A stretch of 64,000 nt of DNA from an uncultured bacterium (lineage in GTDB: Bacteria > Spirochaetota > B62-G9 > DRHN01): assembly GCA_965603595.1 (NCBI GenBank), contig CBFDDP010000002.1, positions 847 to 64,846 on the forward strand, written 5' to 3'. The notes under the pieces were generated by a model. It did not search any database and was not told where the DNA came from. It was given only the letters and a program-made list of their open reading frames with translations. How positions within the stretch are numbered: position 1 is the stretch's first letter; each line of letters begins with the position of its first letter. Below are positions 6,404 through 61,138 of the stretch, in pieces. The position numbers and the translations under genes are program-made.

Positions 6404-6511
6404 CAGCTCCTCCATCCCCTGGAACTGAAGCCGGGATATTGACAAATAATCCATTTTGTGTATCGTTTAGAGTGATACGGGAGCATATCAGCAACCGTGA
6501 GGGTGTACTTC

Positions 6512-12020: not shown

Positions 12021-13004
12021 ATGCCGGGTAAAGCTGAACTGCTCAAACAGGTACCTATTTTTTCCGAGCTTTCACAGAGAGCGCTGGATACAGTGGCCCG
12101 TTACAGCAGGTATTACAAATATGGCACGGGTGAAGTCATTTTCGATGATAACAGCCGGGGGGAGGAACTCTTTGTCATCAAGAACGGCGAGGTGCTCATC
12201 ACCAAGCATCATGCTGAGGGAGACAGGGACATCGCGCGTTTCATAGCCGGTGAAACCTTCGGTGACCTCGAACTGTTCGATGAAGCTTCCAGGTCCACAG
12301 TGGCGACTGCACTAACAGAAACAGTGCTTCTCCAGTTTCCAGGCAAGGACTTTCTGCTCGAAGACCTGCTTCGGAGGCACGCGAAAATATTCGCTCCCGT
12401 GCTTCACAGCCTGCTCGTTGTTATTGCCCGGCGTATCCGTGATACGAACAAGCTCATCTCTGAGAATGCACCCTGGGTACAGGACCTGCGGAGACAGCTG
12501 CACACCGATAAGCTGACAGGCCTGTACAACCGCACCTACCTCGAGGAGGATTTCTCCGAACTTCTATCCGGATATGGAGAAGGAACAGCACTCATCATGG
12601 TAAAGCCGGACAGATTCAAACATATCAACGATCGATTCGGACATGAAACGGGAGACCGAGTATTGCGGGTCATGGCGCAGACACTGCTCGATGCGGCAGG
12701 CAGTGAAGGGTTGGCTGCACGGTACAGGGGAGATGAATTTGCGGTCATTCTGCCGGCTGCAGGGATTGAACGGTCCCGGAATCTGGCACGGGACATCGGA
12801 AAGGCGATGGGTTCAATCGACATGGGGAAACTGGTGGGAGAAGCGTACGAACCCATAACCGTAAGTACAGGGGTTGCCCTCTATTCCCGTGATGGCAAAA
12901 CGAATATGGAACTGATACAGAGTGCCTTTGAACTGATGTTCATGGCGCAGGAAGCCGGCGGTAATTGTGTTCTCCATGCCGGCGACGCGGTGGAGGTACG
13001 CTAG
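12021..13004 (+). CDS. Cyclic-nucleotide-binding (CAP-like) domain fused to a GGDEF domain with a non-canonical RGDEF active-site motif.
   Basis: The N-terminal cNMP-binding fold (FSELSQRALDTV...GEVIF...GETFGDLELF) is followed by the GGDEF-domain hallmarks LTGLYNR, DRFKHINDRFGHETGD and ARYRGDEFAVILP. There is no RxxD I-site before the motif. Confidence 0.8.
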   Translation: MPGKAELLKQVPIFSELSQRALDTVARYSRYYKYGTGEVIFDDNSRGEELFVIKNGEVLITKHHAEGDRDIARFIAGETFGDLELFDEASRSTVATALTETVLLQFPGKDFLLEDLLRRHAKIFAPVLHSLLVVIARRIRDTNKLISENAPWVQDLRRQLHTDKLTGLYNRTYLEEDFSELLSGYGEGTALIMVKPDRFKHINDRFGHETGDRVLRVMAQTLLDAAGSEGLAARYRGDEFAVILPAAGIERSRNLARDIGKAMGSIDMGKLVGEAYEPITVSTGVALYSRDGKTNMELIQSAFELMFMAQEAGGNCVLHAGDAVEVR

Positions 13005-13985
13005 ATGGCGCGAGAAGCTGTTGAATTCCTGAAACAGGTTGAGCTCTTCTCCCTTCTCGGCGATGAAGAGATTGAATCTATAATAGAGTTTCTTCGTACA
13101 ATCCATGTCGATGAGGCCGGAACGCTGTTCAGGCAGGGGGATGAGGGCCATGAGCTCTACATCGTCCGTTCCGGGAAGATACGGGTTGCAATCACACTGC
13201 ATGACGGCCGGGAAAAGGACATCACCGAGTTTTTGCCTGGAGATTTTTTTGGAGAAATGTCCATTTTCGAGAATGCTCCCCGCTCTGCCACCTGTTACGC
13301 CAGTGAGCAGAGCAGCCTCTACGCGCTCATGGGTAGGGATTTCTACAGACTCATAAAGGATTCGCCGTCGCTTGCCATAAAGATCATGTACAGGATGTCA
13401 AATATTACGACACGCCGTTTACGCAGCACCGGTGAGTTCCTCTCCGACATGGTGGTGTGGGGGAAAAGGGCCCGCAAACGTGCAATAACCGATGAGCTGA
13501 CCGGCGTATACAACCGCCACTTCCTCGATGATGCTCTGGAGAATCAGATACACCGAGCAAGGGAAGGTGGAAGCCCGCTCTCTGTCGTTATGGTCGACCT
13601 GGACCACTTCAGGTCGATCAACGATGCCTATGGTCATGAAGTGGGCGACGAGATTCTCCTCTCAGCGGTCGAGATTTTTAAGAGGCATCTCAGAGAGAGG
13701 GATATCCTGGCCCGCTACGGCGGTGATGAGTTCACCATTCTCCTGCCGCACACGGGAATCGAGAAAGCGAGAAGCCTAGCGCAGATGGTCTGTGATGAGA
13801 TGGAGCAGGTCGAGACGCTGCAGCATCGTGGCGGCACACTGACCCGGGTAACCACTTCGCAGGGCATAGCAGCTTTCCCAACCCACGCGAATAACCTGCC
13901 CGCTCTGATGAAAAAGGCAGATGAGGCACTGTACAGGGCGAAGGAGCTTGGCAGAAACAGAGTTGTCTGTGCCGCAGACAGCTAG
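13005..13985 (+). CDS. Cyclic-nucleotide-binding domain fused to a canonical GGDEF diguanylate cyclase with an RxxD I-site.
   Basis: The cNMP-binding N-terminus is followed by LTGVYNR, DHFRSINDAYGHEVGD and RERDILARYGGDEFTILLP (I-site RERD five residues upstream of GGDEF). The start ATG immediately follows the TAG of the upstream paralogue. Confidence 0.85.
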   Translation: MAREAVEFLKQVELFSLLGDEEIESIIEFLRTIHVDEAGTLFRQGDEGHELYIVRSGKIRVAITLHDGREKDITEFLPGDFFGEMSIFENAPRSATCYASEQSSLYALMGRDFYRLIKDSPSLAIKIMYRMSNITTRRLRSTGEFLSDMVVWGKRARKRAITDELTGVYNRHFLDDALENQIHRAREGGSPLSVVMVDLDHFRSINDAYGHEVGDEILLSAVEIFKRHLRERDILARYGGDEFTILLPHTGIEKARSLAQMVCDEMEQVETLQHRGGTLTRVTTSQGIAAFPTHANNLPALMKKADEALYRAKELGRNRVVCAADS

Positions 13986-14041
13986 GTCGGGCAGTCCTGG
14001 TATTGCGCATGTGAGTGCTTTCATCGATGGAGGGACCATAC

Positions 14042-15202
14042 ATGAAGAAAGTTCCTATCACCACTATTTATGAAAAGAACAGGGTTATCGAAAATATCAT
14101 TGACGCCATGCTTACGAGGAATAAATTCCTGCTTCTGGGTCACCGCAATCCCGATGAAGACTGCATTGCCTCTATGGTTGCCTTCTCACTCCTTCTTGGA
14201 AAAATGTACAAGGATGCCGAGATCTGTCTCGGTGAGAAGGTGCACGAACACTTTCAGTATCTTTTTAATATCTGCCGATACAATTCAATCACCCTCGTCG
14301 ATGCATGCGAGAGCTTTGAAGACAGCATTGACACAATAGTCATATGCGATACGCCGAAACCTTCCATGATTGAGCGCAACCGCATGATTGAGAAGCTCTT
14401 TGAAGACCCGGCGGTACTAAAGATCGAAATCGATCACCATATCGGTGCCGACTCGACCTATATTGGTGATCAGGGCTACTGTCTGGTTACCGATGCCACC
14501 TCCTCGAGCGAGCTCGTTGGACATCTCGCTCTTAAAATGAGGAACCGACGGGGACTTGTTGATCAATTCCAGATCAACGAGGTCCTTTCCCGCAATGTCA
14601 TACTTGCCATACTCACCGGAATTATCGGTGATACCAACATGGGTCAGTTTCTTAAATCACGGCGGGAGAAGAAGTTATACCACATTTTCAGTTCTATGCT
14701 CAACAACCTCCTCGCTGAGGAGACGGTCAAAGAATCAAACTTCAAGAACATGGACGAAATCTTTAAGGAATTGCACCGACTCTCGACAAAGGAAGACCAC
14801 AGTTATCGATACTTTATGGACCGGAAGCAGTTTTCCCAGTCCATCGGCTGGGTCGCACTCGACGAGGGCGATACGGAAAAACTCTTTCGCAATGTAGACG
14901 AGCAAACGGTGGTAAATGTTGTACGGGCGGTTGCAAATGAACTTGCTGAGGAAAGCGGCAGACTGAGTCTCGTTTCCTATTACGATAAACCCGGGCTTTC
15001 AGACCTTATACAGTTCCGCATGCGGAGGAGCCAGGCATACAAGAAGTACGATTTGCGGGAGATGCTCACGCTCTTCTCCATAGAGAACGGAGGCGGCCAT
15101 GAGGGGGCTATCGGATTCCGCCTCCCCCGTTCTGAAATCGATGATTACAATCTGTATGTGCAGGGCCTCATTGGAGGGCTTGAGAAGGTGCTCCCCGCAT
15201 AA
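14042..15202 (+). CDS. DHH/DHHA1-family phosphoesterase (NrnA-like nanoRNase / pAp phosphatase type).
   Basis: Motifs HRNPDEDC, ICDT and EIDHHIG, with a C-terminal DHHA1-like GGGH (ENGGGHEGA). The ATG at 14042 is preceded by GGAGGGA. The ORF extends to 14015. Confidence 0.7.
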   Translation: MKKVPITTIYEKNRVIENIIDAMLTRNKFLLLGHRNPDEDCIASMVAFSLLLGKMYKDAEICLGEKVHEHFQYLFNICRYNSITLVDACESFEDSIDTIVICDTPKPSMIERNRMIEKLFEDPAVLKIEIDHHIGADSTYIGDQGYCLVTDATSSSELVGHLALKMRNRRGLVDQFQINEVLSRNVILAILTGIIGDTNMGQFLKSRREKKLYHIFSSMLNNLLAEETVKESNFKNMDEIFKELHRLSTKEDHSYRYFMDRKQFSQSIGWVALDEGDTEKLFRNVDEQTVVNVVRAVANELAEESGRLSLVSYYDKPGLSDLIQFRMRRSQAYKKYDLREMLTLFSIENGGGHEGAIGFRLPRSEIDDYNLYVQGLIGGLEKVLPA

Positions 15203-29105: not shown

Positions 29106-30191
29106 TCATTGTACGCGGCTGAGGCTTCGCTCTATCCACGCATCGGCCATTCCCTCATAACCCTCTGCATCTTTGCTCAACACGAAATATTTCACCGCCT
29201 CCTCATAATCTCTGAGATAGTAGGAGCACTGTCCGGCGTGGAATGCTGCGGACCCTCGCTCCTCCATGGTCAGATCACCCCTGCTGAGTATGGATCTGAA
29301 ATTGTCGAGTGCCCTGCCGTAGTTGCCCGTGTAGAAGTTGCTTCTCAGATTCTGTTCGATAAGCTCACAGGGTGACAATGTTCCCGCCGCCTTCCTTGGC
29401 TCTTCCACCTCCGGTTTTTCCCTGTCCTCAGGACCGGTTTCCTGCACAGGCTCCATCTCGAGCTTCCTCACGACTGTCTCACCCTCTTCGGCCTCGATGA
29501 GAAATGGTCCTGAGATGACATTTCTACCGGGAATGAGGGTTTTGTTCTCCACACCGAGCCTGTTCAGAGCGGTAATGGCCATGAACACTGGCGTGTTTTC
29601 CCGGACCCTTAATTCGAAACGCCCATCATCCCCAGTAACAGTTGCATAGGGCTCTGTATCATCCACCTTTGTGATGGGTATCATGCCTGTATAGAGATTG
29701 TAGGTATACTCATCGGTTGCCGGTATGAATTGAATGGAAAGCCGGTGCTCACCATTTTCATGATCGAGTTCTGTTATGTTAAAGGTGTCGATCACCTCGG
29801 GCAAGGGTGAAAAGTCAATAGGGCTGGTTGTGGTGTTTAGATACGGTATGAGGTCGGGGAACTCCTCAGTTACAGTGACAGCGTAGTAGAACCGGCCGTC
29901 AACCCCGGGAGAATCTTTCAGTGGGATTTCCCCGGCACTGATTTCACCGATCAGGGTCGAACGCTCAATATCCGCCTGCGATATGATCGGCTTATCAGAT
30001 CTGTACACGCGATACTGCAGCTTAGGGTCTTCAATTGGTTCGAAACTCAGGCTCACAAAGCCCTCCTCGTACTTCGGGCTTATGAGTGTGACAAACCTGT
30101 CTTTGGTGACCAATCCCTCATGGCCGATAAGCGGCAGTGCTGCAATGGAGAAGAATATGCCGATGAGCTGTAATACCCTTGGAATTTTCAT
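29106..30191 (-). CDS. Hypothetical secreted/membrane-anchored protein with a TPR-like C-terminus.
   Basis: N-terminal hydrophobic segment and no recognisable catalytic motif. The ORF is long with good codon periodicity. Confidence 0.45.
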   Translation of the reverse strand: MKIPRVLQLIGIFFSIAALPLIGHEGLVTKDRFVTLISPKYEEGFVSLSFEPIEDPKLQYRVYRSDKPIISQADIERSTLIGEISAGEIPLKDSPGVDGRFYYAVTVTEEFPDLIPYLNTTTSPIDFSPLPEVIDTFNITELDHENGEHRLSIQFIPATDEYTYNLYTGMIPITKVDDTEPYATVTGDDGRFELRVRENTPVFMAITALNRLGVENKTLIPGRNVISGPFLIEAEEGETVVRKLEMEPVQETGPEDREKPEVEEPRKAAGTLSPCELIEQNLRSNFYTGNYGRALDNFRSILSRGDLTMEERGSAAFHAGQCSYYLRDYEEAVKYFVLSKDAEGYEGMADAWIERSLSRVQ

Positions 30192-33504: not shown

Positions 33505-33930
33505 TTGGGTTCACGGAGAAGTGCACGTATTATAGCGCTTCAGACTCTTTATCAGATCGATATGAGCGGTGTGCATAGGGATGAAATTCTTACATTTGAC
33601 TGGCTCGATAAGAAGTATGATGATGCCACCATTGATTTTGCCCGCCGCCTTGTGCAAGGTACGATCAACGACCTGCGCAAAATCGATGATCACATCAAGA
33701 GACAGCTCGAGCATTGGGACCTGGACCGTGTGTCCTATGTTGACCGGGCGATCCTGAGATTCTCCACCTATTCACTCTTCTCTCAGAATGATGTGCCCGA
33801 TACGGTCATCATCAATGAGGCTATCGACATTGCAAAGATTTTTGGATCCGATGACTCCTACCGGTTTGTCAATGGAGTTCTGGACGGTATACGAAAGGAA
33901 AAAAACAGGGAGAAAGAAGGGCTTGTGTGA
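33505..33930 (+). CDS. nusB: Transcription antitermination factor NusB.
   Basis: RRSARIIALQTLYQID is the NusB signature N-terminus. 141 aa. Confidence 0.9.
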   Translation: MGSRRSARIIALQTLYQIDMSGVHRDEILTFDWLDKKYDDATIDFARRLVQGTINDLRKIDDHIKRQLEHWDLDRVSYVDRAILRFSTYSLFSQNDVPDTVIINEAIDIAKIFGSDDSYRFVNGVLDGIRKEKNREKEGLV

Positions 33931-35780
33931 ACCCTTTTAAGGATATGGGGAAACGCACCCGCAAGGCTATTGGTTACGCGGTCGTTGCCTCTCTTATCGG
34001 ACTGGGCATTCTCACCTATTTCATTCTGCAAAACCGCATAGTTCCATCTTCCCCCCCTCAGCGCGAAAGAGCGGATACATCTCTGCAGGACGGCATTAAC
34101 CATTACAGGCAGGGAGAATACGAGCAGTCCCGGTTGTTCCTCATAAACGTGGTCGATGCGTCTTGGGATCGAAGGACGAAAAGTACCGCTGCTCTGTACC
34201 TCGGCAATATCTCCTATCGAAAAGGCGACTATGAAGACGCAATCCACTGGTATGGGGAATCATTTCATTTCGATGATGAAAACATGTTTGCTTATTACAA
34301 TGCGGCACTGGTGTCTTCAAAAACAGGTAATCTCCAGAAGGCGTTGAGATACGCCAAAGGTGCCGCCCAACTCTGGGGTGATGACTCGCGCGCGGGCCTC
34401 CTTCTCGCCAATATATACTTCAGCATGGGACGCCTTGGGAGGGCCTCACAACACTACATGAAATTAACGTATGAGAAGGGTATCTCGCAGTACAACCTTT
34501 CCCTGACACTGCTATGTGAGGGAAAGAGACCTGAAGCGCTTGATATACTGCAAACCATCGCCTCCGATCAGAACACAGATGTACTCATGAGAGCGCTGAG
34601 CTCCTATACCGCCGCAACGGTCGGATCTGATATGTATGATGGGGTTCCGGCCCTGCCCGCCAAAGAGGCTTCTGACCATATGGAACAGGCCTTTCTCATT
34701 TTCGATGCACACCCCGCGGTAAATTATAACCGTGCCCTCCTGTTCCTTCGTGAAAGAAGGCATGATGAGGCCATCGATCTGCTGCGCTCACGGGCGACCG
34801 GTTCTGAACATACACTGCTTCTAGGCTATGCGCTGTATCAGTATGGTGACTACCGTAAGGCATTGCAAATCTGGGAGGAACTGTACGAAGAGAATGATGA
34901 GGATGATGGCCGGATTGCCCATGTATTGGGAGATATTCATTACCATCTCAGCAACTACCGTTCCGCCGCAACATATTATCAGGTGGCTGTACGCAGCGGA
35001 CACGCTGTGGGAGCCTATGGCAATCTTGTATATACCTATGTGCAGATGGGAGAATATGAGCAGGCCTTTCAGGCATGCGATGCATACGCTGAAGCGGCCG
35101 TAGATGATGTAAAACCCTTACTCTGCCTTGCAGACCTATATTTTTACACAGGTCACCAAAAACAAGCCATGGACACGCTCGAAAATGCGGTCAGGCTCAT
35201 CGGTGATGATGAAGATGGACTCGAGAGGGTTGCTGCACTCTACGCACGACACGGTATGTATAACAGTGCCCTCCGCCAGTATGTGCGAATTCTCTCCGAG
35301 CAGTCCGACCGCAGCGACATACACGGGAGAATCGCAGAGATATACCTGCGTACCGGGCATGCTGCCCGGGCTCGCGATGAGCTCGAATTGCTTCTGCAGA
35401 ATGAACAGAACAGTGATATACTGTACAGAACTTCCATACTCCTTGCCGGGGTAGAGGGGGGAGCTGAAGCGAGAGAACGGTTGGACCGATTGGTCCTGGA
35501 TTTTCCAGACCGTTATGAGGCCTACTACAATACCGCTGTTCTGCTCTTCCAGGAGGGTGAGTATGGGGAAACACTGGAGATTATTGACGGGTATCTGGAA
35601 AGTGAGGGGGAACTCGATGGCAAAGCTGCCTCGCTCATGCACACCCTTTCGGGTGTTGCCAGCGCCCGGCTCGGCATGAAGGACAGGGCGGCTGTCCTCT
35701 TTTCGAAAGCTGTAGAGCTCGATGAGGATAATGAGCTCGCTGTCATTAATCTGAAGCTGGTTCAGGAATACCCATTTTAG
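33927..35780 (+). CDS. Membrane-anchored tetratricopeptide-repeat protein.
   Basis: One N-terminal TM helix followed by more than 10 TPR-like repeats. No enzymatic motif. Confidence 0.55.
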   Translation: MNPFKDMGKRTRKAIGYAVVASLIGLGILTYFILQNRIVPSSPPQRERADTSLQDGINHYRQGEYEQSRLFLINVVDASWDRRTKSTAALYLGNISYRKGDYEDAIHWYGESFHFDDENMFAYYNAALVSSKTGNLQKALRYAKGAAQLWGDDSRAGLLLANIYFSMGRLGRASQHYMKLTYEKGISQYNLSLTLLCEGKRPEALDILQTIASDQNTDVLMRALSSYTAATVGSDMYDGVPALPAKEASDHMEQAFLIFDAHPAVNYNRALLFLRERRHDEAIDLLRSRATGSEHTLLLGYALYQYGDYRKALQIWEELYEENDEDDGRIAHVLGDIHYHLSNYRSAATYYQVAVRSGHAVGAYGNLVYTYVQMGEYEQAFQACDAYAEAAVDDVKPLLCLADLYFYTGHQKQAMDTLENAVRLIGDDEDGLERVAALYARHGMYNSALRQYVRILSEQSDRSDIHGRIAEIYLRTGHAARARDELELLLQNEQNSDILYRTSILLAGVEGGAEARERLDRLVLDFPDRYEAYYNTAVLLFQEGEYGETLEIIDGYLESEGELDGKAASLMHTLSGVASARLGMKDRAAVLFSKAVELDEDNELAVINLKLVQEYPF

Positions 35781-35984: not shown

Positions 35985-38381
35985 ATGAAGATCAACACTA
36001 AGAAAAAAATCAACCTCAGTGCAGAAAGCAAGAACCTGATCAAGGTGCGTGACTTTGTGGTGAAGTATGGCCGCAAGATGGGCCTTCTCCCAAAGCAGGT
36101 GAGTGAAGTGAAGCTTGCGGTCGACGAGGCGGTGTCGAACATCATCCGCCATGCCTACGGTGGTGGGAGGGGTAATTTCCAGGTCGAGATGACAAAATTC
36201 GAAAGTGCCGTGGAATTGAAGATCATTGATCAGGGAGTTGAGTTTGACTGGTATTCAGTCCTGGAACCCGACCTTTACAAGTATGTGGAGACGAGGCGAA
36301 AGGGTGGCCTGGGGATCTGGCTCATAAAGAAACTCATCGATGAGGTGGAGTATAAGAGGCTCGAGAACAACAATATCCTTACCATGAAGATATACATCGA
36401 TGAGGTGGTCGCCAAAGAGTTCGCCCGTGAGGTCCGGGGGCGGTTCAGCATCAGGATACGCTATGCGGTCTACGCGCTTGGTATGGTTGGTATCATAGTA
36501 TTAACGGCCTTTATTATTGGAAGCAGGGTGCAGAGCACCATTATTGAGAAAAGGTTGAATGAACGCTACGAATCGGTAACCAGACAGGTTTCGGAAACTG
36601 CGTCCGACCTCATTCTCGACGGCGATGATCTTGCCCTTGCAAACCTGGCAGTCTCGGTCCGCCAGAATGACAACACCCTTGGGTATGTCATTGTCACGGA
36701 TACGGATAATCTGATACTTGCCCACACCGATGTGAAGCGAATATACACAACCTACAATAAGCCCTCCGGGATTTTGGATAATGCAGTGTTCGAACTGAGG
36801 GAAGTCGAGTACAGAAGTGCAGGGAGTACGGCCAGATTCAAGCACTTTGCTGCACGTGTGGTATATGTAAACACTGCAGAGGGACAGTCGAGAAATCTCG
36901 GGGAAGTGCACATCGGAATCGACCAGAATGTGTTCCTCCAGAGAATCGACGCTGCAAAGGAAAACACAAGGGTGGCCCTCATAGCCGTGTTCTTTGGAGG
37001 TACGACCATCATCGGGGTCATCCTTATCGGCTCCACCTTCATCTCTCCAATCACCAAGCTTGCCGATGAAATCTCCCGTATCAGTGCCACCGGGCAGGCC
37101 CGTGAGCTGAGCTTCGCAACGAGGAACCCGGAGGTAGGCAGGATTGGTCAGGCTTTCAACGAGATCATGCGCAATCTGCGCATGACGCAGGGTCAGCTTA
37201 CCGACCAGACACGTCTGCGGCGCGAACTGCAGCTCGCTCAGGAGATACAGAATGCCCTTCTGCCCAAGCAGGTGCCGACCCTGGATGGGTTTGACATAGA
37301 TGCTGCCTACCGGGCCGCTCTGGAGGTGGGTGGTGACTACTACGATTTCTTCGAGGTGGACAAAAATTCCATCGGCATCGTGGTTGCCGACGTTTCTGGT
37401 AAGGGAATCGGAAGTTCGATGGTCATGACCATGATCAGGACTTCCATGCGTCTGGAGGCACGCGGGAACAAACGTGCGTCCTTTGTGCTCGACAAGGTGA
37501 ACCGTATCGCAGTGGAGGATATCAAAAAGGGCATGTACGTCACCATGTACTATGTAATCCTCGATGCCAAGAAGCGCATCGTGAATTACGCAAGTGCCGG
37601 GCACAACCCCATGATTATTTACCGGAGTGATACGAAAACGGTGAGCTTCCTCAATCCCGTGGGTATAGCTGTGGGCATCGACCTGGGGAACACCGACGAG
37701 TTCAAGAAGCGTATCACCAGTGAGAAGCTGAAGCTGAAAAAGGGGGATCTGTTATTTATCTATACGGACGGCATCACCGAGGCGATGGACGAGAAACGCG
37801 AACAGTTTGGGGAGAATCGGCTCATTGACTTCATACAGCAATACGCGCATCTGCCCGCAAGTGAGTTCAAGGCGAAGCTGAACGAGGAGCTCACCGCCTT
37901 TACCAAGGGCTATCCGCAGAGCGATGATATCACCTTCGTTGTCATCAAGCTCGAGATGAGCCCGGCCGAGATCAGGCAGGCCAAGATACTCCGTCTCTTT
38001 GAGCTGCTCGAGGAGGAAGTTCCCCTTGACGATGTCCTCGAGCAGACTGGTATCTCCCATGAGGAGTATCAGGAACTCAATGAGAAACGGGAGCAGCTCG
38101 GTGACGAGGCGATCAAGGTTGTGGCGGAGGAGGAAAAGGAGGAGGCAGAGCTGGGCCATGCGTCGCACGAACAGGTCAAGCTGCTTACCCAGATCATACG
38201 GCAGAATCCCGAGTACGGGGTGACGCGGTTGACAAACCTCCTGAACAGCGAGGAGTACGGGTCACAGGGCGTGAAGGAGAGTGTGGTCAAGAGGGAGCTC
38301 GTGCGTATGAAGCTCGATAGTCGGGAGAAGCGCGAGGCCTTTTCCAAGCGTGAGCTTCCCACCTGGGCTTCCTACAAGTAG
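35985..38381 (+). CDS. Fusion protein: RsbW/SpoIIAB-like anti-sigma Ser kinase domain (HATPase_c_2), TM, sensor, TM, HAMP, PP2C/SpoIIE Ser phosphatase, and a C-terminal acidic helical extension.
   Basis: N-terminus AVDEAVSNIIRHAY...GGLGIWLIKKLIDEVEY (kinase). Two TM helices flanking a ~150-aa segment. HAMP (TKLADEISRISATGQ...). PP2C motifs DVSGKGIGSSMVMT and YTDGITEAMDE. 798 aa. Confidence 0.8.
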   Translation: MKINTKKKINLSAESKNLIKVRDFVVKYGRKMGLLPKQVSEVKLAVDEAVSNIIRHAYGGGRGNFQVEMTKFESAVELKIIDQGVEFDWYSVLEPDLYKYVETRRKGGLGIWLIKKLIDEVEYKRLENNNILTMKIYIDEVVAKEFAREVRGRFSIRIRYAVYALGMVGIIVLTAFIIGSRVQSTIIEKRLNERYESVTRQVSETASDLILDGDDLALANLAVSVRQNDNTLGYVIVTDTDNLILAHTDVKRIYTTYNKPSGILDNAVFELREVEYRSAGSTARFKHFAARVVYVNTAEGQSRNLGEVHIGIDQNVFLQRIDAAKENTRVALIAVFFGGTTIIGVILIGSTFISPITKLADEISRISATGQARELSFATRNPEVGRIGQAFNEIMRNLRMTQGQLTDQTRLRRELQLAQEIQNALLPKQVPTLDGFDIDAAYRAALEVGGDYYDFFEVDKNSIGIVVADVSGKGIGSSMVMTMIRTSMRLEARGNKRASFVLDKVNRIAVEDIKKGMYVTMYYVILDAKKRIVNYASAGHNPMIIYRSDTKTVSFLNPVGIAVGIDLGNTDEFKKRITSEKLKLKKGDLLFIYTDGITEAMDEKREQFGENRLIDFIQQYAHLPASEFKAKLNEELTAFTKGYPQSDDITFVVIKLEMSPAEIRQAKILRLFELLEEEVPLDDVLEQTGISHEEYQELNEKREQLGDEAIKVVAEEEKEEAELGHASHEQVKLLTQIIRQNPEYGVTRLTNLLNSEEYGSQGVKESVVKRELVRMKLDSREKREAFSKRELPTWASYK

Positions 38382-38640
38382 GGATAATGCGTTGTATGTG
38401 AACTTTTCAGTTGCTTTTCAATTTCGGTTTGGAGTACAATTATTCTATGTATAGTAAATAATGACGCATCATGAAGCCTTTTTCATTTTTTTATCTGAGA
38501 ATAAGGGTTATGTTGATGGGTGCCTTGTTACGCGATGCTGCGAAAATACAGGGCTGCCTATAAATTCACTATGTTCAAGTGGCGATATATACTATATTGA
38601 GTCGAAGCGATAGAGCTTCCGAGGTACTGAGGAGGAGTGG

Positions 38641-39351
38641 ATGCCAGATATTCAGGTTGATGTCAGATACGACGGTGACAGCGATGAGATAGCCATTATC
38701 GATGCGAAGGGTTTCATCGACACCACCACTGCTCCCGAGCTCGAGAAGAAGCTCGAAGAGCAGTTGGCACTTAATAAATACAGGATAGTCGTGAATCTTG
38801 AAAATATCGACTACGTGAGCAGTGCAGGATGGGGTGTTTTCGTTTCTGAGATCCGGGAAATTCGGGAGAACAGCGGTGACCTCGTTCTTGTGAACATGTC
38901 TCCCGATGTGTATGATGTCTATGAGCTCATGGAGTTTTCATCCATACTGAAGTCCTACGACAGTGTGGAAGAGGCTATTGCAGGTTTCACAGGTAAGGAG
39001 TTCAAGAAGGAGGAGCCGAAACTTGCACCTGGGCCAGCTCTCCCACCGAGGCCTGAGCCTGTACAACCCCAAGTGCAACCAGAGCAGCAGGCGCCTGCCC
39101 AGACCGCACAGCCACAGGCTACATCGGGTACCGATGTCTATTCCTATGCTCAGAGTGAACTCGGCAAACGTATCATACATATCATCGTCGATAATCCCTA
39201 CTACAAAGTGAAGGAGATCGCAAAGGCACTAAGGCTCCCCAACTACGGTGGTATGAAGGTGGGCGGTGGTGCCGTTAAAAAAGAATTGAAGAGCATGGGA
39301 TTGTCAGACAAACAGCAGCGTTTTGAGCTCGCTTTGAAGGGACGCGGCTAA
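38641..39351 (+). CDS. STAS-domain anti-sigma-factor antagonist (SpoIIAA/RsbV-like) with a Pro/Gln-rich linker and an extra ~60-aa C-terminal domain (possible helix-turn-helix).
   Basis: STAS fold with the phosphorylatable Ser motif IDYVSSAGWG. Linker PGPALPPRPEPVQPQVQPEQQAPAQTAQPQ. C-terminus RIIHIIVDNPYYKVKEIAKALRLP. Confidence 0.8.
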   Translation: MPDIQVDVRYDGDSDEIAIIDAKGFIDTTTAPELEKKLEEQLALNKYRIVVNLENIDYVSSAGWGVFVSEIREIRENSGDLVLVNMSPDVYDVYELMEFSSILKSYDSVEEAIAGFTGKEFKKEEPKLAPGPALPPRPEPVQPQVQPEQQAPAQTAQPQATSGTDVYSYAQSELGKRIIHIIVDNPYYKVKEIAKALRLPNYGGMKVGGGAVKKELKSMGLSDKQQRFELALKGRG

Positions 39352-39415
39352 TCCAGGCCTATTTAGCCACCCTATCCACAGTGCAACAAAAACTTCAGAA
39401 TAGCGGGTGAGAAGC

Positions 39416-41647
39416 ATGGAAACCAAGGTGGCCGATTACCTGATAACAGTTGAAAAGGTAACCAGGGAACTCTCACAGATAGAGTCCATAAAACAGCTGC
39501 CACAGTATATTGCAAGTCAGCTTTCATCCGCATTGAATGATAACGTTCAATATGCCTTCGTTGACAGGGAATCAAACAATATCTATGAATCCTCCCACAT
39601 TGACAGCAATGTCAAGAATTTACTGCCCTTTTTCCTGGACGACAGGTTTACGGACGAGTTGAAGAAGCTCGACTGGAGCGTGGTTGACTCGAGGGGGGTG
39701 CGTTTTCTTTTCAAGGAGGTTTTTGGCCACGAATCAGACCTGGAGGCATCCTTTCTCATCCTGCCAAAGAAACGGGGTGACCTGATCGTCTACTTCTCTG
39801 TGCTCTGGGGGAGCAATAAACTCGAGAAGATCGACAAGGAGGAGGTCGATTTCATTTCCTCTGTGTGCAGTGCTGCTGAACTGAAGATTGTGAGCCTGCT
39901 TGGCGTTGCCAATCAGGCAGGAGACAGGGATTTAAGGCGCAAGGCCTTTGAGCTGAAAGAAATTTCCGGTATGGGCGTCGATCTAACCTCACTTGGCAAG
40001 GAGGATTTTTTTGGCAGTTTTCTCCTGAACGTCATGGGGAGAGCGCTCAGTAAGACGGCTGTTATCTTCCTTTCGACCAATGAAAACAACACTGAGTATG
40101 CACCTGTCGCGTCCAGAGGTGTGCTCAAGAAATTTGTGGAGAATATCCATTTCACAGATAAAAACTCATTCATTCAGGAGCTGAGAAAGCGGCAGGAAGC
40201 AATGGCTATACCGGATATGCTTGACATACTGGACGATGAGGAGAAAGACAGCTTCATCAAACTCGAGGCTGCTGTTCTCGTCCCCCTCATCTCTAAGAAT
40301 GGATTGATCGGCCTGCTCACACTCGGCGAACGTATGAATATGCAGCCCTACTCTGAAAAGGTCTATGACTCTATTAAGATCTATAGTAACCAGATGGTGA
40401 TGGCGATCGAAAACTCCAAACTTTCCAACCTTCGCTATGCCTTTTCGCGTTATGTTTCCCATCAGCTCGTCGACGGCATTCTTTCCGATCTGGATAAGGT
40501 TAAGCTAGGAGGAGAGCGGCGGAAGGTCACCGTTCTCTTTGCAGATATTCGAGGGTTCACCTCGATGGCCGAGAAGATGAAGCCTGAGGAGGTTGTAGAC
40601 CTGCTCAACACCTATCTATCGGGACTGACCGATATCGTATTCAAGTTCGAGGGAACCCTCGACAAGTATATTGGCGACTGCCTTATGGCTGTGTTCGGCA
40701 CACCCATCTCTCACTACAATGATGCGGAGCGGGCGACCATAACCGCCATAGAGATGCAGAAATATGTGGAGGAGATCAACGCCAAGAGGGAAAAGAAAGG
40801 CCTCCCCGAGGTGGCGATAGGTGTCGGGCTCAACACCGGTCATGCCATATCAGGAAATATGGGCTCGGTAGACCGGATGGACCTTACGGTCATCGGTGAT
40901 GTAGTCAATATTGCCTCAAGGCTTGAAGGGATTGCCGGTCGCGGCCAGATACTGGCCACCCGTGAAGTGTATGAAGAGGTGAAGTATGTTGTAGACGCCG
41001 AGTTTCTGGACAGTGTGACGGTGAAGGGTAGAGCACAGGCCGTTGACGTGTATGAGATCAAGGGTCTTATGGCAGGGAGGTTCCTGAGTGTGCTCGAACG
41101 GGTGGAACCCTACAAGGTTGGCCACTATCTCAATATTGCCGGGGATGCAGAGCTCATAGGCCAGAAGCTTGGATTTCCCATGGAAGAACTCATCAAACTC
41201 CGTTCCGCAATCCTGCTTATCGATATCGGCAGAATCGGACTGAGTGAGGGTATATTCAATAAGAAAGATAAGTTAACCCCCGAAGAGTTTGAAGTGGTGA
41301 AGAGTCATGTCATTCGGGGTGCTGAGTATGTTGAAAAGAAGCTGAATCTCTTCAAGGAGGGTATTGAACTCGTGAAGTATCATCACGAGTTTTACGACGG
41401 CAGTGGGTATCCCGACGGTCTCAAGGGTGAGGATATCCCACTCTGGGCACGGATCGTTTCAGTAGTCGATTCTTACTATGCCATGATCTCCAGCCGGCCA
41501 TTTAGAGAGCCCCTCAAAGAGGAGCAGGCCATAGCCATTCTCAATGATGAGAAGGGCAAGAAATACGATCCGAAAATAGTTGACGTCTATACTGGAATCC
41601 TTAGAAAACGGCTGCACGAAAACGTCGAAGCGGGTACCCCTGCATGA
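39416..41647 (+). CDS. GAF-like N-terminal region, class III adenylate/guanylate cyclase catalytic domain, and HD-GYP phosphodiesterase domain.
   Basis: Cyclase motifs VTVLFADIRGFT, KYIGDCLMAVFG and VGLNTGHAISGNMGS. HD-GYP motifs (H..HHEFYDGSGYPDGL). The ATG at 39416 is in frame with a GTG at 39407. Confidence 0.85.
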   Translation: METKVADYLITVEKVTRELSQIESIKQLPQYIASQLSSALNDNVQYAFVDRESNNIYESSHIDSNVKNLLPFFLDDRFTDELKKLDWSVVDSRGVRFLFKEVFGHESDLEASFLILPKKRGDLIVYFSVLWGSNKLEKIDKEEVDFISSVCSAAELKIVSLLGVANQAGDRDLRRKAFELKEISGMGVDLTSLGKEDFFGSFLLNVMGRALSKTAVIFLSTNENNTEYAPVASRGVLKKFVENIHFTDKNSFIQELRKRQEAMAIPDMLDILDDEEKDSFIKLEAAVLVPLISKNGLIGLLTLGERMNMQPYSEKVYDSIKIYSNQMVMAIENSKLSNLRYAFSRYVSHQLVDGILSDLDKVKLGGERRKVTVLFADIRGFTSMAEKMKPEEVVDLLNTYLSGLTDIVFKFEGTLDKYIGDCLMAVFGTPISHYNDAERATITAIEMQKYVEEINAKREKKGLPEVAIGVGLNTGHAISGNMGSVDRMDLTVIGDVVNIASRLEGIAGRGQILATREVYEEVKYVVDAEFLDSVTVKGRAQAVDVYEIKGLMAGRFLSVLERVEPYKVGHYLNIAGDAELIGQKLGFPMEELIKLRSAILLIDIGRIGLSEGIFNKKDKLTPEEFEVVKSHVIRGAEYVEKKLNLFKEGIELVKYHHEFYDGSGYPDGLKGEDIPLWARIVSVVDSYYAMISSRPFREPLKEEQAIAILNDEKGKKYDPKIVDVYTGILRKRLHENVEAGTPA

Positions 41648-42843
41648 GTGAAATCTCCAAAAAGCTGGTCGTTTCTAGCGATCTGGAGAAGAACCTCATC
41701 TTTCAGAGTCTCCTCAGGATGAAGGAGCCGATCGAACTGGAGCTTGGCGGATTTCGTTATCCGGGTTTCGTGAAACGCTATGATAGGAAGAGCATTCTCC
41801 TCGACATGCAGACCCCTCTGAAAATGGATGTTGGGGGGCCTGTTCGCGCCCATTTTATCTTCCACAACAGTTACCATTATTTTGACACCGCCGCGCAGAA
41901 GAAGGATGATAGCCATATTCAGCTTCTGCTCCCCGAGAAGATCAACAGGAATATGCTCCGCGCCAATGACCGTATTGATGGGCTGAACCGTGTGTTCATG
42001 CGATTCAAGATCCTGATTCATTCAAAGCGAAAAGAACTCTTGAGCTCCTCTCTCCTAGATGAACGAGTAATCATGCAGGAGGTGAGTAAGCCAAAGCCCG
42101 CCGTGGACAAGATACTTGCCGGGATCAAGCGGCTCGTCTCCGATTTTGCCCAGAACTTTCAGGTCAAAATATTCAAAGAGGATGAAAAACTTTCCTTTGA
42201 TGAGAGTATTCTCAAGCAGTCCGGGAAGATCTTTCTTATCTATGACTCTTTTGAGGACAACATCGAGGGCAGAAGGCATTTTGAGCAGGAGGTCATTGGC
42301 ATCAGTGATGCATATGCGCTCCTGATTCATGCAGGAGAATCGAGAAAGAACGCTGAAAGTAAACTGCTAGATCTGCTTCAGCAGAAGAGAAACGGCAATG
42401 TCTTTTCTGAGAGTCTCATACCGCTCATGCTGGAAGGCGAGGTTGTGGGATATATCCGCCTGTTCAACGACATGGATTATCATCGAAGCATAAAACCCGC
42501 ATTCGCTCTTCGCGCGGCAAAGTATGCCACTGTTCTCGTGGAAGCTCTTGTGAAGTATGATTACTTCACTCTCGAAAGCGGGGAGGAATTCGATGTACCT
42601 GTTATCAATGTGAGTGCGGGAGGACTCCTGTTCAAGCTCGACAGGTCTGCGGTAAAACAGTATCTTATTCTCCGCACCACGCTCATGATGACGATTCAAT
42701 TTACCACACATCTGGTTGAGGCGAGCGGTGTTATACACCGCATCGATAAGGAACGGTCCGAATTCGGCGTTAAATTTTTTATGATAAACGAGGTTGACAG
42801 CCAGTTTATCGATGATGTGGTGCATGGCAAGGTAAAGGTGTAG
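41644..42843 (+). CDS. PilZ-domain protein (YcgR-like N-terminal domain plus a C-terminal PilZ with a DxSxGG-like motif).
   Basis: The C-terminus VINVSAGGLLFKL matches the (D/N)xSxGG c-di-GMP-binding motif. An upstream RxxxR is not obvious. The ATGA overlaps the stop of the cyclase/HD-GYP gene. Confidence 0.6.
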   Translation: MSEISKKLVVSSDLEKNLIFQSLLRMKEPIELELGGFRYPGFVKRYDRKSILLDMQTPLKMDVGGPVRAHFIFHNSYHYFDTAAQKKDDSHIQLLLPEKINRNMLRANDRIDGLNRVFMRFKILIHSKRKELLSSSLLDERVIMQEVSKPKPAVDKILAGIKRLVSDFAQNFQVKIFKEDEKLSFDESILKQSGKIFLIYDSFEDNIEGRRHFEQEVIGISDAYALLIHAGESRKNAESKLLDLLQQKRNGNVFSESLIPLMLEGEVVGYIRLFNDMDYHRSIKPAFALRAAKYATVLVEALVKYDYFTLESGEEFDVPVINVSAGGLLFKLDRSAVKQYLILRTTLMMTIQFTTHLVEASGVIHRIDKERSEFGVKFFMINEVDSQFIDDVVHGKVKV

Positions 42844-42867
42844 CTGTGTACCCTGTGGGAGGCACAT

Positions 42868-43326
42868 ATGGCAGCAAAAAATGGACAGGAGATGAACAGT
42901 GTAATCGGTGAGGGTTCCATCTTCGAGGGGAAGTTTTACATCAACGGTTCTCTGCAGATAGATGGAAGGTTCGAGGGGGATATTCGTACTGATGAACATG
43001 TTTTGGTCGGTGAAACAGGCAAGGTTAAAACCGATATTGTTGCGCGGAGAGTCATCGTCGCCGGTACAGTCATAGGCAATATTGAGGCTGATGAAGAGGT
43101 GCATCTGCTTACCACGGGACGTGCGCTCGGGAATATCCGTGCTCCAAAAGTGAACGTTGAAGACGGCGCTATCATAGAGGGTGAGGTATCGATCAGCGCA
43201 GGTCAGAAGAAAGATGTGAAGCGGGTAATCGAAGAGTCCTTCTCGGCAGGACCGAAACTGAACGACATGCTCAAGGGACAGAAACGCATCAGTGAAGAGG
43301 AGAAGGAAACACCGCAGGATGCATGA
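42868..43326 (+). CDS. Bactofilin (polymer-forming cytoskeletal protein, DUF583).
   Basis: Repetitive beta-helical pattern (GxVxGxIxA...) typical of bactofilins, with an N-terminal short tail. 152 aa. Confidence 0.8.
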   Translation: MAAKNGQEMNSVIGEGSIFEGKFYINGSLQIDGRFEGDIRTDEHVLVGETGKVKTDIVARRVIVAGTVIGNIEADEEVHLLTTGRALGNIRAPKVNVEDGAIIEGEVSISAGQKKDVKRVIEESFSAGPKLNDMLKGQKRISEEEKETPQDA

Positions 43327-44065
43327 GCTGAAGAACGGAACCGAGATTGAGTACATCAGGCAGTCCTGCAGGATCGTTGCTGAGCTGCTTGAGTACTTGA
43401 GGGAGATTGTAAAAAATGGTGTTACCACAGGGTGGCTCGATCAGGAGGCAGAAGAATTTATTGAGAAGCGTGGTGCAATACCGGCCTTCAAGAACTACAA
43501 CGGATTCCCTGCATCAATCTGTTCATCGATCAATGAAGAGGTCATTCATGGCATACCAGGTGAGTACCGACTTCAGGAAGGCGATATACTGAGTGTTGAT
43601 GTGGGTGTGAACAAGGCCAGATATTTCGGTGATGCAGCCGTTACCATCCCTGTCGGACAAATCTCAGATGGAAAGAGAAAACTTCTGGAGACGACTGAGC
43701 GTGCCCTCTATGCGGGAATAGAAAAAGCGGTTCACCACAACCATGTGTCCGATATATCTCGGGCCGTCCAGAACGTGGTGGAAGGAGAGGGATTTTCGGT
43801 GGTTCGGGATTTTGTAGGGCATGGTGTTGGTAAGAGGCTGCACGAGGAACCTCCCATACCCAACTATAAAACACCAGGCAGAGGGCCGCAATTGCTCGAA
43901 GGGATGACACTCGCCATTGAACCTATGGTGAACATGGGTGGGTATGAAGTGTACATCAGGGACGACAACTGGACAGTTGTCACAAAGGACGGTACACCCT
44001 CGGCCCACTTTGAACATACCATACTGGTGCGCGACGGGGAGCCCGATATCCTCACCCTGCTCTAA
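43319..44065 (+). CDS. map: Methionine aminopeptidase type I.
   Basis: Metal-ligand pattern (D..D, H, E..E) and pita-bread fold motifs. The ATG at 43319 overlaps the bactofilin stop by 8 nt. Confidence 0.9.
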   Translation: MHELKNGTEIEYIRQSCRIVAELLEYLREIVKNGVTTGWLDQEAEEFIEKRGAIPAFKNYNGFPASICSSINEEVIHGIPGEYRLQEGDILSVDVGVNKARYFGDAAVTIPVGQISDGKRKLLETTERALYAGIEKAVHHNHVSDISRAVQNVVEGEGFSVVRDFVGHGVGKRLHEEPPIPNYKTPGRGPQLLEGMTLAIEPMVNMGGYEVYIRDDNWTVVTKDGTPSAHFEHTILVRDGEPDILTLL

Positions 44066-60715: not shown

Positions 60716-60847
60716 TGGTCAGGGGGCTGTCAATAAAAGTGGTAAAGGGCTGCTAAATACTACAAGAGTCTTGGCGTAGGAAGTGCGTCCTTATAGTGGA
60801 GAGAGGTTGCCAAGGCGTACCAAAGTGGTTACAATAGGTGTGAACCG

Positions 60848-61138
60848 ATGTTTCAATTTCCCTTTACACCTACCGTGTACTTCCACCTGTTTGATCTTGC
60901 ACTCGCGGTCTGTATATATGGAATTTCCATCGTGCTCTTTCTCACCTATAAACGTGGCAAACTGGGGCCGATACTATTCCTGGGACTCTTCATCTTCCCC
61001 CTGCAGTTCAGCATATGGTTTCTTCAGAGCAGGATCAGTCTGTCATTTCCCATGCAGATCGACATACTCGAAGTGTTTTATCTCTTCTTCGTGAAGTTCA
61101 GCGTTCTTGTGACCCTGATTCTTGCCAGACGCACATAG
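60848..61138 (+). CDS. Small hypothetical membrane protein (3 predicted TM helices).
   Basis: ATG start and strongly hydrophobic content. No homology is inferable. Confidence 0.3.
   Translation: MFQFPFTPTVYFHLFDLALAVCIYGISIVLFLTYKRGKLGPILFLGLFIFPLQFSIWFLQSRISLSFPMQIDILEVFYLFFVKFSVLVTLILARRT

Follow-up and report, generated by a model that had tools for sequence, protein, structure and literature searches.

Putative partner-switch, adenylate cyclase and bactofilin units lie side by side in an uncultured Spirochaetota clade

We analysed a 64,000-nucleotide stretch of DNA (hereafter the window) from an uncultured bacterium of the phylum Spirochaetota (assembly GCA_965603595.1, contig CBFDDP010000002.1), in which five consecutive plus-strand open reading frames (ORFs), at 35985-38381, 38641-39351, 39407-41647, 41644-42843 and 42868-43326, encode a kinase/phosphatase sensor, a STAS protein, an adenylate cyclase with an HD-GYP domain, a PilZ protein and a bactofilin. 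A preliminary description of this DNA had joined the five genes into one relay, running from a membrane signal through cyclic AMP (cAMP) and cyclic di-GMP (c-di-GMP) to the cytoskeleton. This relay is unproven, and the evidence fits better, with a probability that we put at roughly 60%, with three functional units placed side by side in one uncultured Spirochaetota clade: a partner switch without a sigma factor, an adenylate cyclase coupled to a c-di-GMP receptor, and a bactofilin gene coupled to map. Overall, the parts are of known kinds in a new variant arrangement, and one of them, the YcgR-GAZ receptor, has already been published.

All non-overlapping ORFs of at least 100 amino acids in the window were annotated with Pfam. 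The ORF list agreed with the positions and the common orientation given earlier for the five genes, and the domain inventory was borne out as well, with HATPase_c_2/sCache/HAMP/PP2C, STAS, GAF/class III cyclase/HD-GYP, PilZ and bactofilin domains all recovered by the profile searches, of which sCache_3_2, HAMP and GAF_3 scored below the curated Pfam cut-offs. The view that no sigma factor is encoded nearby also stood, since no sigma-factor domain was found in these ORFs of the window, and none was present in the related loci either (the L081-L091 neighbourhoods and the L171 and L172 contigs included; L and P numbers denote related loci and proteins); a sigma gene farther away is possible.

The kinase/phosphatase sensor, the STAS protein and their common tail

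The first gene (35985-38381, plus strand) encodes a bifunctional sensor of 798 amino acids. Its domain order, derived from Pfam, transmembrane segments and motif positions, is an RsbW-type Ser kinase (residues 12-135), a first transmembrane segment (161-179), a periplasmic sCache_3_2 domain (187-319), a second transmembrane segment (330-348), HAMP (348-399), PP2C/SpoIIE (460-656), an acidic helical segment (657-722) and a basic HTH_21/HTH_32-like tail (723-798). HATPase_c_2 and SpoIIE were matched with E-values of 3.5e-25 and 6.4e-45, respectively, sCache_3_2 (2.2e-6) reached 28.2 bits, slightly under its cut-off of 28.4, and HAMP (1.2e-4) reached 22.8 bits, under its cut-off of 25. Because of the two hydrophobic segments, the kinase, HAMP and PP2C domains are predicted to be cytoplasmic, and the Cache domain to lie outside. 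The N, G1 and G2 boxes of the GHKL kinase (E48, N52, H56, D82, G84, G107, G108 and G110) and the metal-binding aspartates of the PP2C domain (D451, D469, D595, D647 and D648) are invariant in six orthologues. The combination of an N-terminal kinase and a PP2C domain in one polypeptide recurs in P0230, P0236, P0252, P0256, P0257 and P0260. The sensor has no central receiver (REC) input domain, the place of which is held by the two transmembrane segments, sCache_3_2 and HAMP.

The second gene (38641-39351, plus strand) encodes a STAS protein of 236 amino acids (Pfam STAS, 1.7e-17), composed of the STAS domain (residues 1-118), a disordered Pro/Gln linker (119-166) and a basic HTH_21-like tail (167-236; nucleotides 39139-39348). 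Its predicted phospho-acceptor is Ser60 in the motif DYVSSAGWG, which lies at the start of helix 2 and is invariant in STAS orthologues. In an AlphaFold2 model, the predicted local distance difference test score (pLDDT) was about 80 for the STAS domain, below 50 for the linker and 82-87 for the four-helix tail. Foldseek aligned the model with SpoIIAA (1tid_B) with a TM-score of 0.88 and a root-mean-square deviation of 1.3 A; the matches covered the STAS domain alone, and nothing was matched to the tail.

The last 60-75 residues of the kinase/PP2C and STAS proteins are homologous (34% identity, E 4e-9), are conserved in orthologues, and are basic in both copies, with isoelectric points (pI) of 9.6-9.9. 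This shared C-terminal helix-turn-helix (HTH)-like tail is a feature absent from the preliminary description and so far poorly described. A word-index search with the tail yielded only 11 fragments, and an exhaustive profile search was used instead, which returned 229 cluster representatives. Among the 18 that were sampled, every STAS or kinase/PP2C-type protein has the tail after its STAS or PP2C domain, and the architectures included STAS-plus-tail, HATPase_c_2-sCache-HAMP-SpoIIE-plus-tail, the latter with C-terminal tetratricopeptide repeats (TPR), and repeated HTH_21/HTH_32 units. In the L093 homologue of the sensor (37% identity), HTH_28 (31.1 bits) and HTH_23 are found above threshold directly after the PP2C domain, and HTH_32 is also matched. 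These architectures and the HTH matches of L093 suggest that the tail is an HTH_21/HTH_32-like domain of the transposase type and accompanies this partner switch. One further tail-bearing sequence, P0211, an 86-amino-acid fragment on an 825-nt contig, begins like DnaJ, with MEDYYKVLGVSEKAT, and continues into the tail domain of the kinase/PP2C protein; it is probably a gene-call or assembly artefact.

Upstream of the sensor gene lies a gene for a membrane-anchored TPR protein of 617 amino acids (33927-35780, plus strand; Pfam TPR families) with one hydrophobic segment at residues 15-33. In L092, L093 and L171 as well, the gene immediately before that of the kinase/PP2C protein encodes a TPR protein, with a 4-nt overlap in L093 (705-4780) and a 13-nt gap in L171 (6101-11519), and C-terminal TPR repeats are fused to the kinase/PP2C-HTH protein in P0257 (1172 amino acids) and P0260 (1343 amino acids). 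These arrangements point to a TPR protein as the third component of the partner-switch module, for which the TPR protein of the window is a possible accessory. The latter was also considered as a homologue of the L093 TPR proteins, and this was rejected, as the similarity is of the generic TPR kind and does not establish homology. The spacer between the TPR and kinase/PP2C genes carries the element GTCGATAA(T) in seven out of nine related loci (L085:6362, L086:6216, L087:6228, L088:6193, L089:6316, L090:5925 and L091:9958), mostly with T(C/A)AA 15-16 nt upstream, and the window holds only a degenerate copy, GACGATAC, at about 35860. The element resembles the sigma-28 promoter of Treponema denticola flaB2, with its -35 sequence TTAA and -10 sequence CCGATAA (PMC9481697), and its presence in the relatives hints that the kinase/PP2C gene may belong to a late flagellar regulon.

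The region had been said not to map to any described system, but its parts can be assigned to SypE/SypA, CapK/CapS, SiaABCD, YcgR-GAZ and the degenerate HD-GYP proteins fused to PilZN-PilZ. As in the partner-switching systems RsbW/RsbV/RsbU and SpoIIAB/SpoIIAA/SpoIIE, a kinase, a PP2C phosphatase and a STAS serine are present; here, however, no cognate sigma factor is found in the window or the related loci, and the STAS protein has an extra C-terminal domain. SypE of Vibrio fischeri (PMC10120452) likewise combines, in one polypeptide, an RsbW-like Ser kinase at the N-terminus with a PP2C domain at the C-terminus, which together set the Ser phosphorylation of the STAS protein SypA; no sigma factor takes part, and SypA is a downstream component whose target is not known. 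The present pair differs from SypE/SypA by a periplasmic input module (transmembrane segment, sCache, transmembrane segment and HAMP) in the place of the REC domain of SypE, by the HTH_21/HTH_32-like tail on both proteins, and by a locus that is not a polysaccharide locus. CapK/CapS shares an anti-sigma-type GHKL kinase with an HTH, and a STAS substrate with a C-terminal HTH-type domain, which in our case is predicted from sequence. CapS is a repressor composed of STAS and a winged HTH (wHTH) that is phosphorylated by CapK, and phosphorylation at its STAS Ser governs both its binding to DNA and how the operon next to it is expressed (PMC13373217). However, CapK is cytoplasmic, activated by single-stranded DNA and lacks PP2C, and the wHTH of CapS is MarR/ArsR-like and abuts the STAS domain, whereas the tail found here is of the transposase type and follows a 45-residue disordered linker.

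From the domains, motifs, gene coupling and conservation patterns we infer the activities, ligand binding, protein contacts and links of the units. The first unit would be a sigma-free partner switch in which a single membrane protein holds the Ser kinase, the periplasmic Cache sensor, HAMP and PP2C, and ligand binding to the Cache domain would shift the balance between kinase and phosphatase activity on Ser60 of the STAS protein. The common HTH-like tail may bring both proteins to the same site, either DNA or each other. The output could then be built into the pair itself, as phosphorylation-controlled binding by the STAS-HTH protein in the manner of CapS, or the STAS protein may act on some other target like SypA.

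The cyclase, the YcgR-GAZ receptor and the bactofilin

The third gene encodes a GAF/cyclase/HD-GYP protein of 743 amino acids (39416-41647, plus strand; Pfam and residue mapping); its start is placed at the ATG at 39416 and not at 39407, because orthologues are 743-746 amino acids long. An N-terminal region without an assigned fold is followed by a GAF-like domain (40040-40414), a class IIIb adenylate cyclase domain (40520-41053) and a degenerate HD-GYP domain (41093-41578). Pfam E-values were 8.2e-27 for Guanylate_cyc, 7.3e-34 for HD_5 and 4.9e-5 for GAF_3 (24.2 bits, cut-off 27). All residue counts for the cyclase and HD-GYP domains were made on 21 aligned family members. The cyclase residues D377 and D421 (metal), K417/T491 (substrate), N498 and R502 (transition state) and K537 are kept in 18-19 of them, and the K/T pair is presumably that of a class IIIb enzyme with ATP specificity. 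Homologues that share this architecture make up a single family, with about 80 clusters at 50-99% identity, all from uncultured Spirochaetota where named, and the next matches lack the HD-GYP domain. When the genome collection was scanned with the cyclase alignment, the pattern LFADIRxFT proved too general: orthologues were found only in L001 and L002, and 78 loci were unrelated cyclases.

The HD-GYP domain was mapped onto PmGH (4mcw), and a check of the numbering recovered all 18 reference residues. The HD dyad of PmGH (H221 and D222) corresponds to I602-D603 in the window protein, and the position of H221, a metal ligand, is occupied by Ile, Met or Tyr in all 21 members. The positions of E185 and D308 are both Tyr in the window protein, and the latter is Tyr, His, Gln or Asn in the family, never acidic. 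In contrast to these losses, H189, D222, H250, H276, H277 and D305 are essentially invariant in the family, and the HHExxDGxGYP motif, I294 and R314 are invariant in 21/21; the GYP and substrate-contact residues are preserved. In PmGH, the H221A substitution strongly lowers activity, and H221A and D308A cripple the enzyme, as quoted in PMC12943098. The preliminary description had the protein not only make cAMP but also destroy c-di-GMP, which is difficult to reconcile with the substituted H221 and D308 positions. Since the altered site is strongly conserved, the domain reads as a binding or regulatory pseudo-enzyme and, judged from these residues, is most likely a c-di-GMP sensor and not a hydrolase. 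The two most divergent members of the family, P0076 and P0078 (L083:7717-9945 and L084:7299-9527), have lost cyclase residues as well (metal Asp to Gly, Arg to Gln and Lys to Glu), and these doubly degenerate proteins are encoded in an unrelated context beside a radical SAM gene.

Catalytically inactive HD-GYP proteins are known from ECA3548, HnoD and RpfG, which regulate by binding or protein contacts, and ECA3548 is an inactive HD-GYP domain fused to PilZN-PilZ (bioRxiv 10.1101/2021.11.05.467447). In these proteins too, the HD or HHE motifs are altered and the fold is kept; in the window protein, however, the losses are confined to H221, E185 and D308, and HHExxDGxGYP is complete. The fusion to an adenylate cyclase that appears active from its residues is not listed in that survey, and a cyclase fused to a pseudo-HD-GYP domain is so far poorly described.

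The fourth gene (41644-42843, plus strand) overlaps the cyclase stop by 4 nt (ATGA), and the translational coupling to a PilZ gene that had been proposed is supported by this overlap and by the spacing of -8 to +31 nt in all relatives. Pfam, motifs, an AlphaFold2 model and Foldseek identify the protein of 399 amino acids as a putative c-di-GMP receptor of the YcgR-GAZ type. It consists of PilZN (residues 1-100), the motif R106xxxR110, a GAF-like GAZ insertion (about 130-305), and the rest of PilZ (306-389) with N322xS324xxG327. PilZ was matched at 4.5e-5 with 24.1 bits (cut-off 22.5) and DUF1577 at 18.5 bits, under its cut-off of 25. In 25 orthologues, R106 and R110 are invariant and N322xS324xxG327 is conserved, with the RxxxR motif located 200 residues upstream of the latter. 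The model reached a pLDDT of 85.7, and the top Foldseek matches were MrkH, YcgR (5y6f), PP4397 and MotI at both ends, followed by GAF domains in the middle. By its sequence features the protein belongs to the YcgR-GAZ family, so this part of the region is already known: the family was published in 2025 for Leptospira, and its member LIC_11920 binds c-di-GMP (PMC11800159). Like the Leptospirales proteins, the window protein has PilZN, RxxxR, the GAZ insertion and PilZ with [D/N]xSxxG, and in both cases the proteins are limited to Spirochaetota and rarely have flagellar genes nearby. It differs in matching DUF1577 below threshold only, and in being a member of an orthologous group specific to the clade, whose genes are always found after the cyclase/HD-GYP gene.

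These two translationally coupled genes would form the second unit, a candidate node for cross-talk between c-di-GMP and cAMP. The pseudo-HD-GYP domain may sense c-di-GMP or dock the YcgR-GAZ protein and so tune cAMP synthesis, and YcgR-GAZ itself would pass on c-di-GMP levels to the flagellar motor or another target. Outside the cluster, 26 kb upstream of the cyclase gene, two tandem genes (12021-13004 and 13005-13985, plus strand) encode proteins with Pfam cNMP_binding and GGDEF domains, the first with RGDEF and the second with the canonical RYGGDEF and an RERD I-site, and they are followed by a gene for a DHH-family phosphoesterase (14015-15202, plus strand). By their domains, the three genes are a candidate set for cAMP-responsive synthesis and turnover of c-di-GMP, and the two GGDEF enzymes could close a loop from cAMP to c-di-GMP.

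The fifth gene (42868-43326, plus strand) encodes a bactofilin of 152 amino acids (Pfam Bactofilin PF04519, 4e-27, covering profile positions 1-97 of 98) and starts 24 nt past the YcgR-GAZ stop, with the ribosome-binding site GGGAGG. It is overlapped by 8 nt, ATGCATGA, by the methionine aminopeptidase gene map (43319-44065, plus strand; Peptidase_M24, 7.2e-46), and an overlap of 8-38 nt is found in all eight relatives with called genes. In view of the 8-nt overlap, the bactofilin gene is tied to a housekeeping gene at least as tightly as to the PilZ gene. Together with map, the bactofilin is likely co-translated as a third, morphogenesis/housekeeping unit, which would be the least connected to the signalling genes. 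We also considered an LmdC-type bactofilin-M23 peptidase pair (PMC10945521). In agreement with such pairs, an M23 gene is found no more than 2.3 kb from the bactofilin gene and the phylum is one of helical cells, but map and asnS separate the two genes here. Moreover, LmdC uses a cytoplasmic tail to bind bactofilin (PMC10945521), and the M23 protein here has only a signal-peptide-like N-terminus. With no cytoplasmic tail and a position two genes away, it makes a weak candidate and was rejected.

Gene neighbourhoods and competing explanations

The five-gene order is kept in nine out of ten clade loci with upstream context (L002, L082 and L085-L091), at protein identities of 60-71%. However, the five genes are embedded in a longer collinear block, metK-murI-surA-nusB-TPR at one end and map-(archease-rtcB)-asnS-M23-PNP-helicase at the other, and conservation of the signalling proteins equals that of AsnS and NusB; since the block lies in conserved housekeeping synteny, adjacency alone proves little. 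In L081 (contig CP070841, 3.53 Mb), the cyclase, YcgR-GAZ, bactofilin and map genes are kept next to unrelated upstream genes, so that the break falls between STAS and the cyclase, and the divergent cyclase/HD-GYP gene of L083 and L084 stands alone. Kinase/PP2C-STAS pairs were found in five further lineages by a metagenome scan and two contig look-ups, namely L092, L093 and L095 (37-39% identity) and, through the tail-profile hits P0257 and P0230, L171 and L172. None of the pairs in these five lineages has a cyclase/HD-GYP, YcgR-GAZ or bactofilin gene beside it; their neighbours are TPR genes, gltX, in one case a PilZ gene on the opposite strand, and genes for a NusG-like protein, a sigma-54 activator, Iso_dh, Obg and unknown proteins. 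The PilZ gene (L093:6442-7278, minus strand; 278 amino acids) lies 1.2 kb downstream of the pair, and this is the only other lineage with a c-di-GMP receptor near the module. The idea of a conserved neighbourhood thus held within the clade, but not for L081 or the distant lineages, and the kinase/PP2C and STAS genes make up a self-contained module, which is often accompanied by a TPR protein.

The spacing between the genes points in the same direction. Tight coupling is limited to two junctions, cyclase/YcgR-GAZ and bactofilin/map, and the distance from YcgR-GAZ to bactofilin is 12-312 nt, from kinase to STAS 122-371 nt, and from STAS to cyclase 64-494 nt (64 nt here, 175-494 nt in relatives). 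The latter two spacers are AT-rich and unconserved: when the three spacers were aligned across nine loci, kinase-STAS and STAS-cyclase showed no conserved element beyond the ribosome-binding site. The Rfam scan of the whole window returned no RNA family, which argues against a riboswitch in the long spacers, and promoter and terminator scans of the window gave counts equal to the shuffled expectation, that is, at chance level.

The single relay would have the Cache signal change STAS phosphorylation, and the STAS protein regulate the adjacent cyclase/HD-GYP protein, as HsbA does with HsbD and SiaC with SiaD, after which cAMP and c-di-GMP would act through YcgR-GAZ on the bactofilin or the motor. 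Partner switches that control diguanylate cyclases are indeed published for SiaABCD (PMC8457831, PMC7647112) and HsbA (bioRxiv 10.1101/2024.11.25.625174), and in these Pseudomonas systems, SiaABCD and HsbR/HsbA/HsbD, PP2C and kinase activities likewise control a small partner that is encoded beside, or acts on, a second-messenger cyclase. Those systems act on a GGDEF diguanylate cyclase, through an interaction that was shown experimentally, whereas the gene next to the pair here encodes a class III adenylate cyclase that ends in a pseudo-HD-GYP domain, and the link is only positional, in one clade. The common gene order in the clade, the window without a sigma factor and the absence of predicted terminators between the genes would also suit a relay. 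However, that order belongs to a much longer housekeeping block that does not single out these five genes, the pair has other neighbours in five lineages, L081 is broken at the very junction of STAS and cyclase, the spacer between these two genes is long and differs in length among loci, the bactofilin is coupled to map rather than to the signalling genes, and the HD-GYP domain is degenerate. Hence, we consider the relay unlikely, and the same neighbourhood evidence speaks against the earlier proposal that the STAS protein controls the cyclase or the PilZ-bactofilin pair.

Several observations weigh against a division into three units as well. With no terminator predicted between any genes of the window and a STAS-cyclase spacer of only 64 nt, co-transcription of all five genes is possible in this organism. 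Their joint presence in most clade loci makes a clade-specific functional link between the first two units possible, and partner switches that act on cyclases are known from elsewhere. Without H221, hydrolysis is expected to be lost, although this is a prediction and not a proof. The tails of the window proteins give only sub-threshold Pfam matches (HTH_24, HTH_21 and HTH_Tnp_Tc3_2), not a recognised DNA-binding family, and the STAS proteins of L092 and L093 lack the tail, so that it is not obligatory for the switch.

Slightly less probable than the relay is a CapK/CapS-like switch, in which phosphorylation would release or recruit the STAS-HTH protein at a promoter of the cyclase and YcgR-GAZ genes, and the first unit would control transcription of the second. 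In its favour, a basic, HTH-like unit of four helices (pI 9.9) comes after the STAS domain, an HTH cassette is present in the kinase/phosphatase as it is in CapK, the STAS gene lies directly upstream of the cyclase operon with a spacer that is long and AT-rich in the relatives, and for CapS, a STAS-wHTH protein, repression of an adjacent operon has been proven (PMC13373217). On the other hand, the STAS-cyclase spacers of the nine loci contain no conserved motif or palindrome, so no operator for such a mechanism was found, the tail resembles a transposase HTH_21/HTH_32 and not the MarR-type wHTH of CapS, it follows a disordered linker whereas CapS is compact, and other lineages have different downstream genes. 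That the five genes are functionally unrelated neighbours in a slowly rearranging region, with the cyclase/HD-GYP and YcgR-GAZ genes sharing no more than a transcript, is very improbable, for although the stretch from metK to map is collinear throughout the clade and the signalling proteins are no better conserved than AsnS and NusB, the cyclase and YcgR-GAZ genes overlap or nearly overlap in every relative, both have c-di-GMP-type domains of kinds that occur in one polypeptide in ECA3548, and the kinase/PP2C and STAS genes stay paired across lineages at 37-39% identity.

A bolder version, which we regard as doubtful, is that the kinase/PP2C-STAS pair represents a widespread, undescribed class of sigma-free partner switches in which a shared domesticated transposase HTH_21/HTH_32 domain takes both proteins to DNA. 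In this clade, the STAS-HTH protein would gate transcription of the c-di-GMP-sensing cyclase and YcgR-GAZ, turning a periplasmic signal into cAMP/c-di-GMP cross-talk that controls motility.

Provided that the inferred functions are real, two ideas follow, both of which concern uncultured Spirochaetota. First, a pseudo-HD-GYP domain may regulate a class III adenylate cyclase, and the protein would then be a direct converter of c-di-GMP into cAMP signals. The route from cAMP to c-di-GMP is known, with cAMP activating a diguanylate cyclase such as Lcd1 of Leptospira; the converter would complement this route, and the cNMP-GGDEF genes of the window fit the latter. Secondly, a family of membrane-bound bifunctional kinase/phosphatases would share a transposase-derived HTH-like domain with their STAS substrates, which would extend the finding made with CapK/CapS that STAS proteins can be outputs themselves and not only anti-sigma antagonists.

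Elsewhere in the window, the gene at 6497-7762 (plus strand) encodes a soluble GAF-HisKA-HATPase_c histidine kinase with no response regulator adjoining. Two ORFs had no Pfam match, one of 103 amino acids at 60783-61094 (plus strand) and one of 361 amino acids at 29106-30191 (minus strand), which adjoins metK. In L082 and L090, the called genes include an unannotated gene of 189-195 amino acids beside metK.

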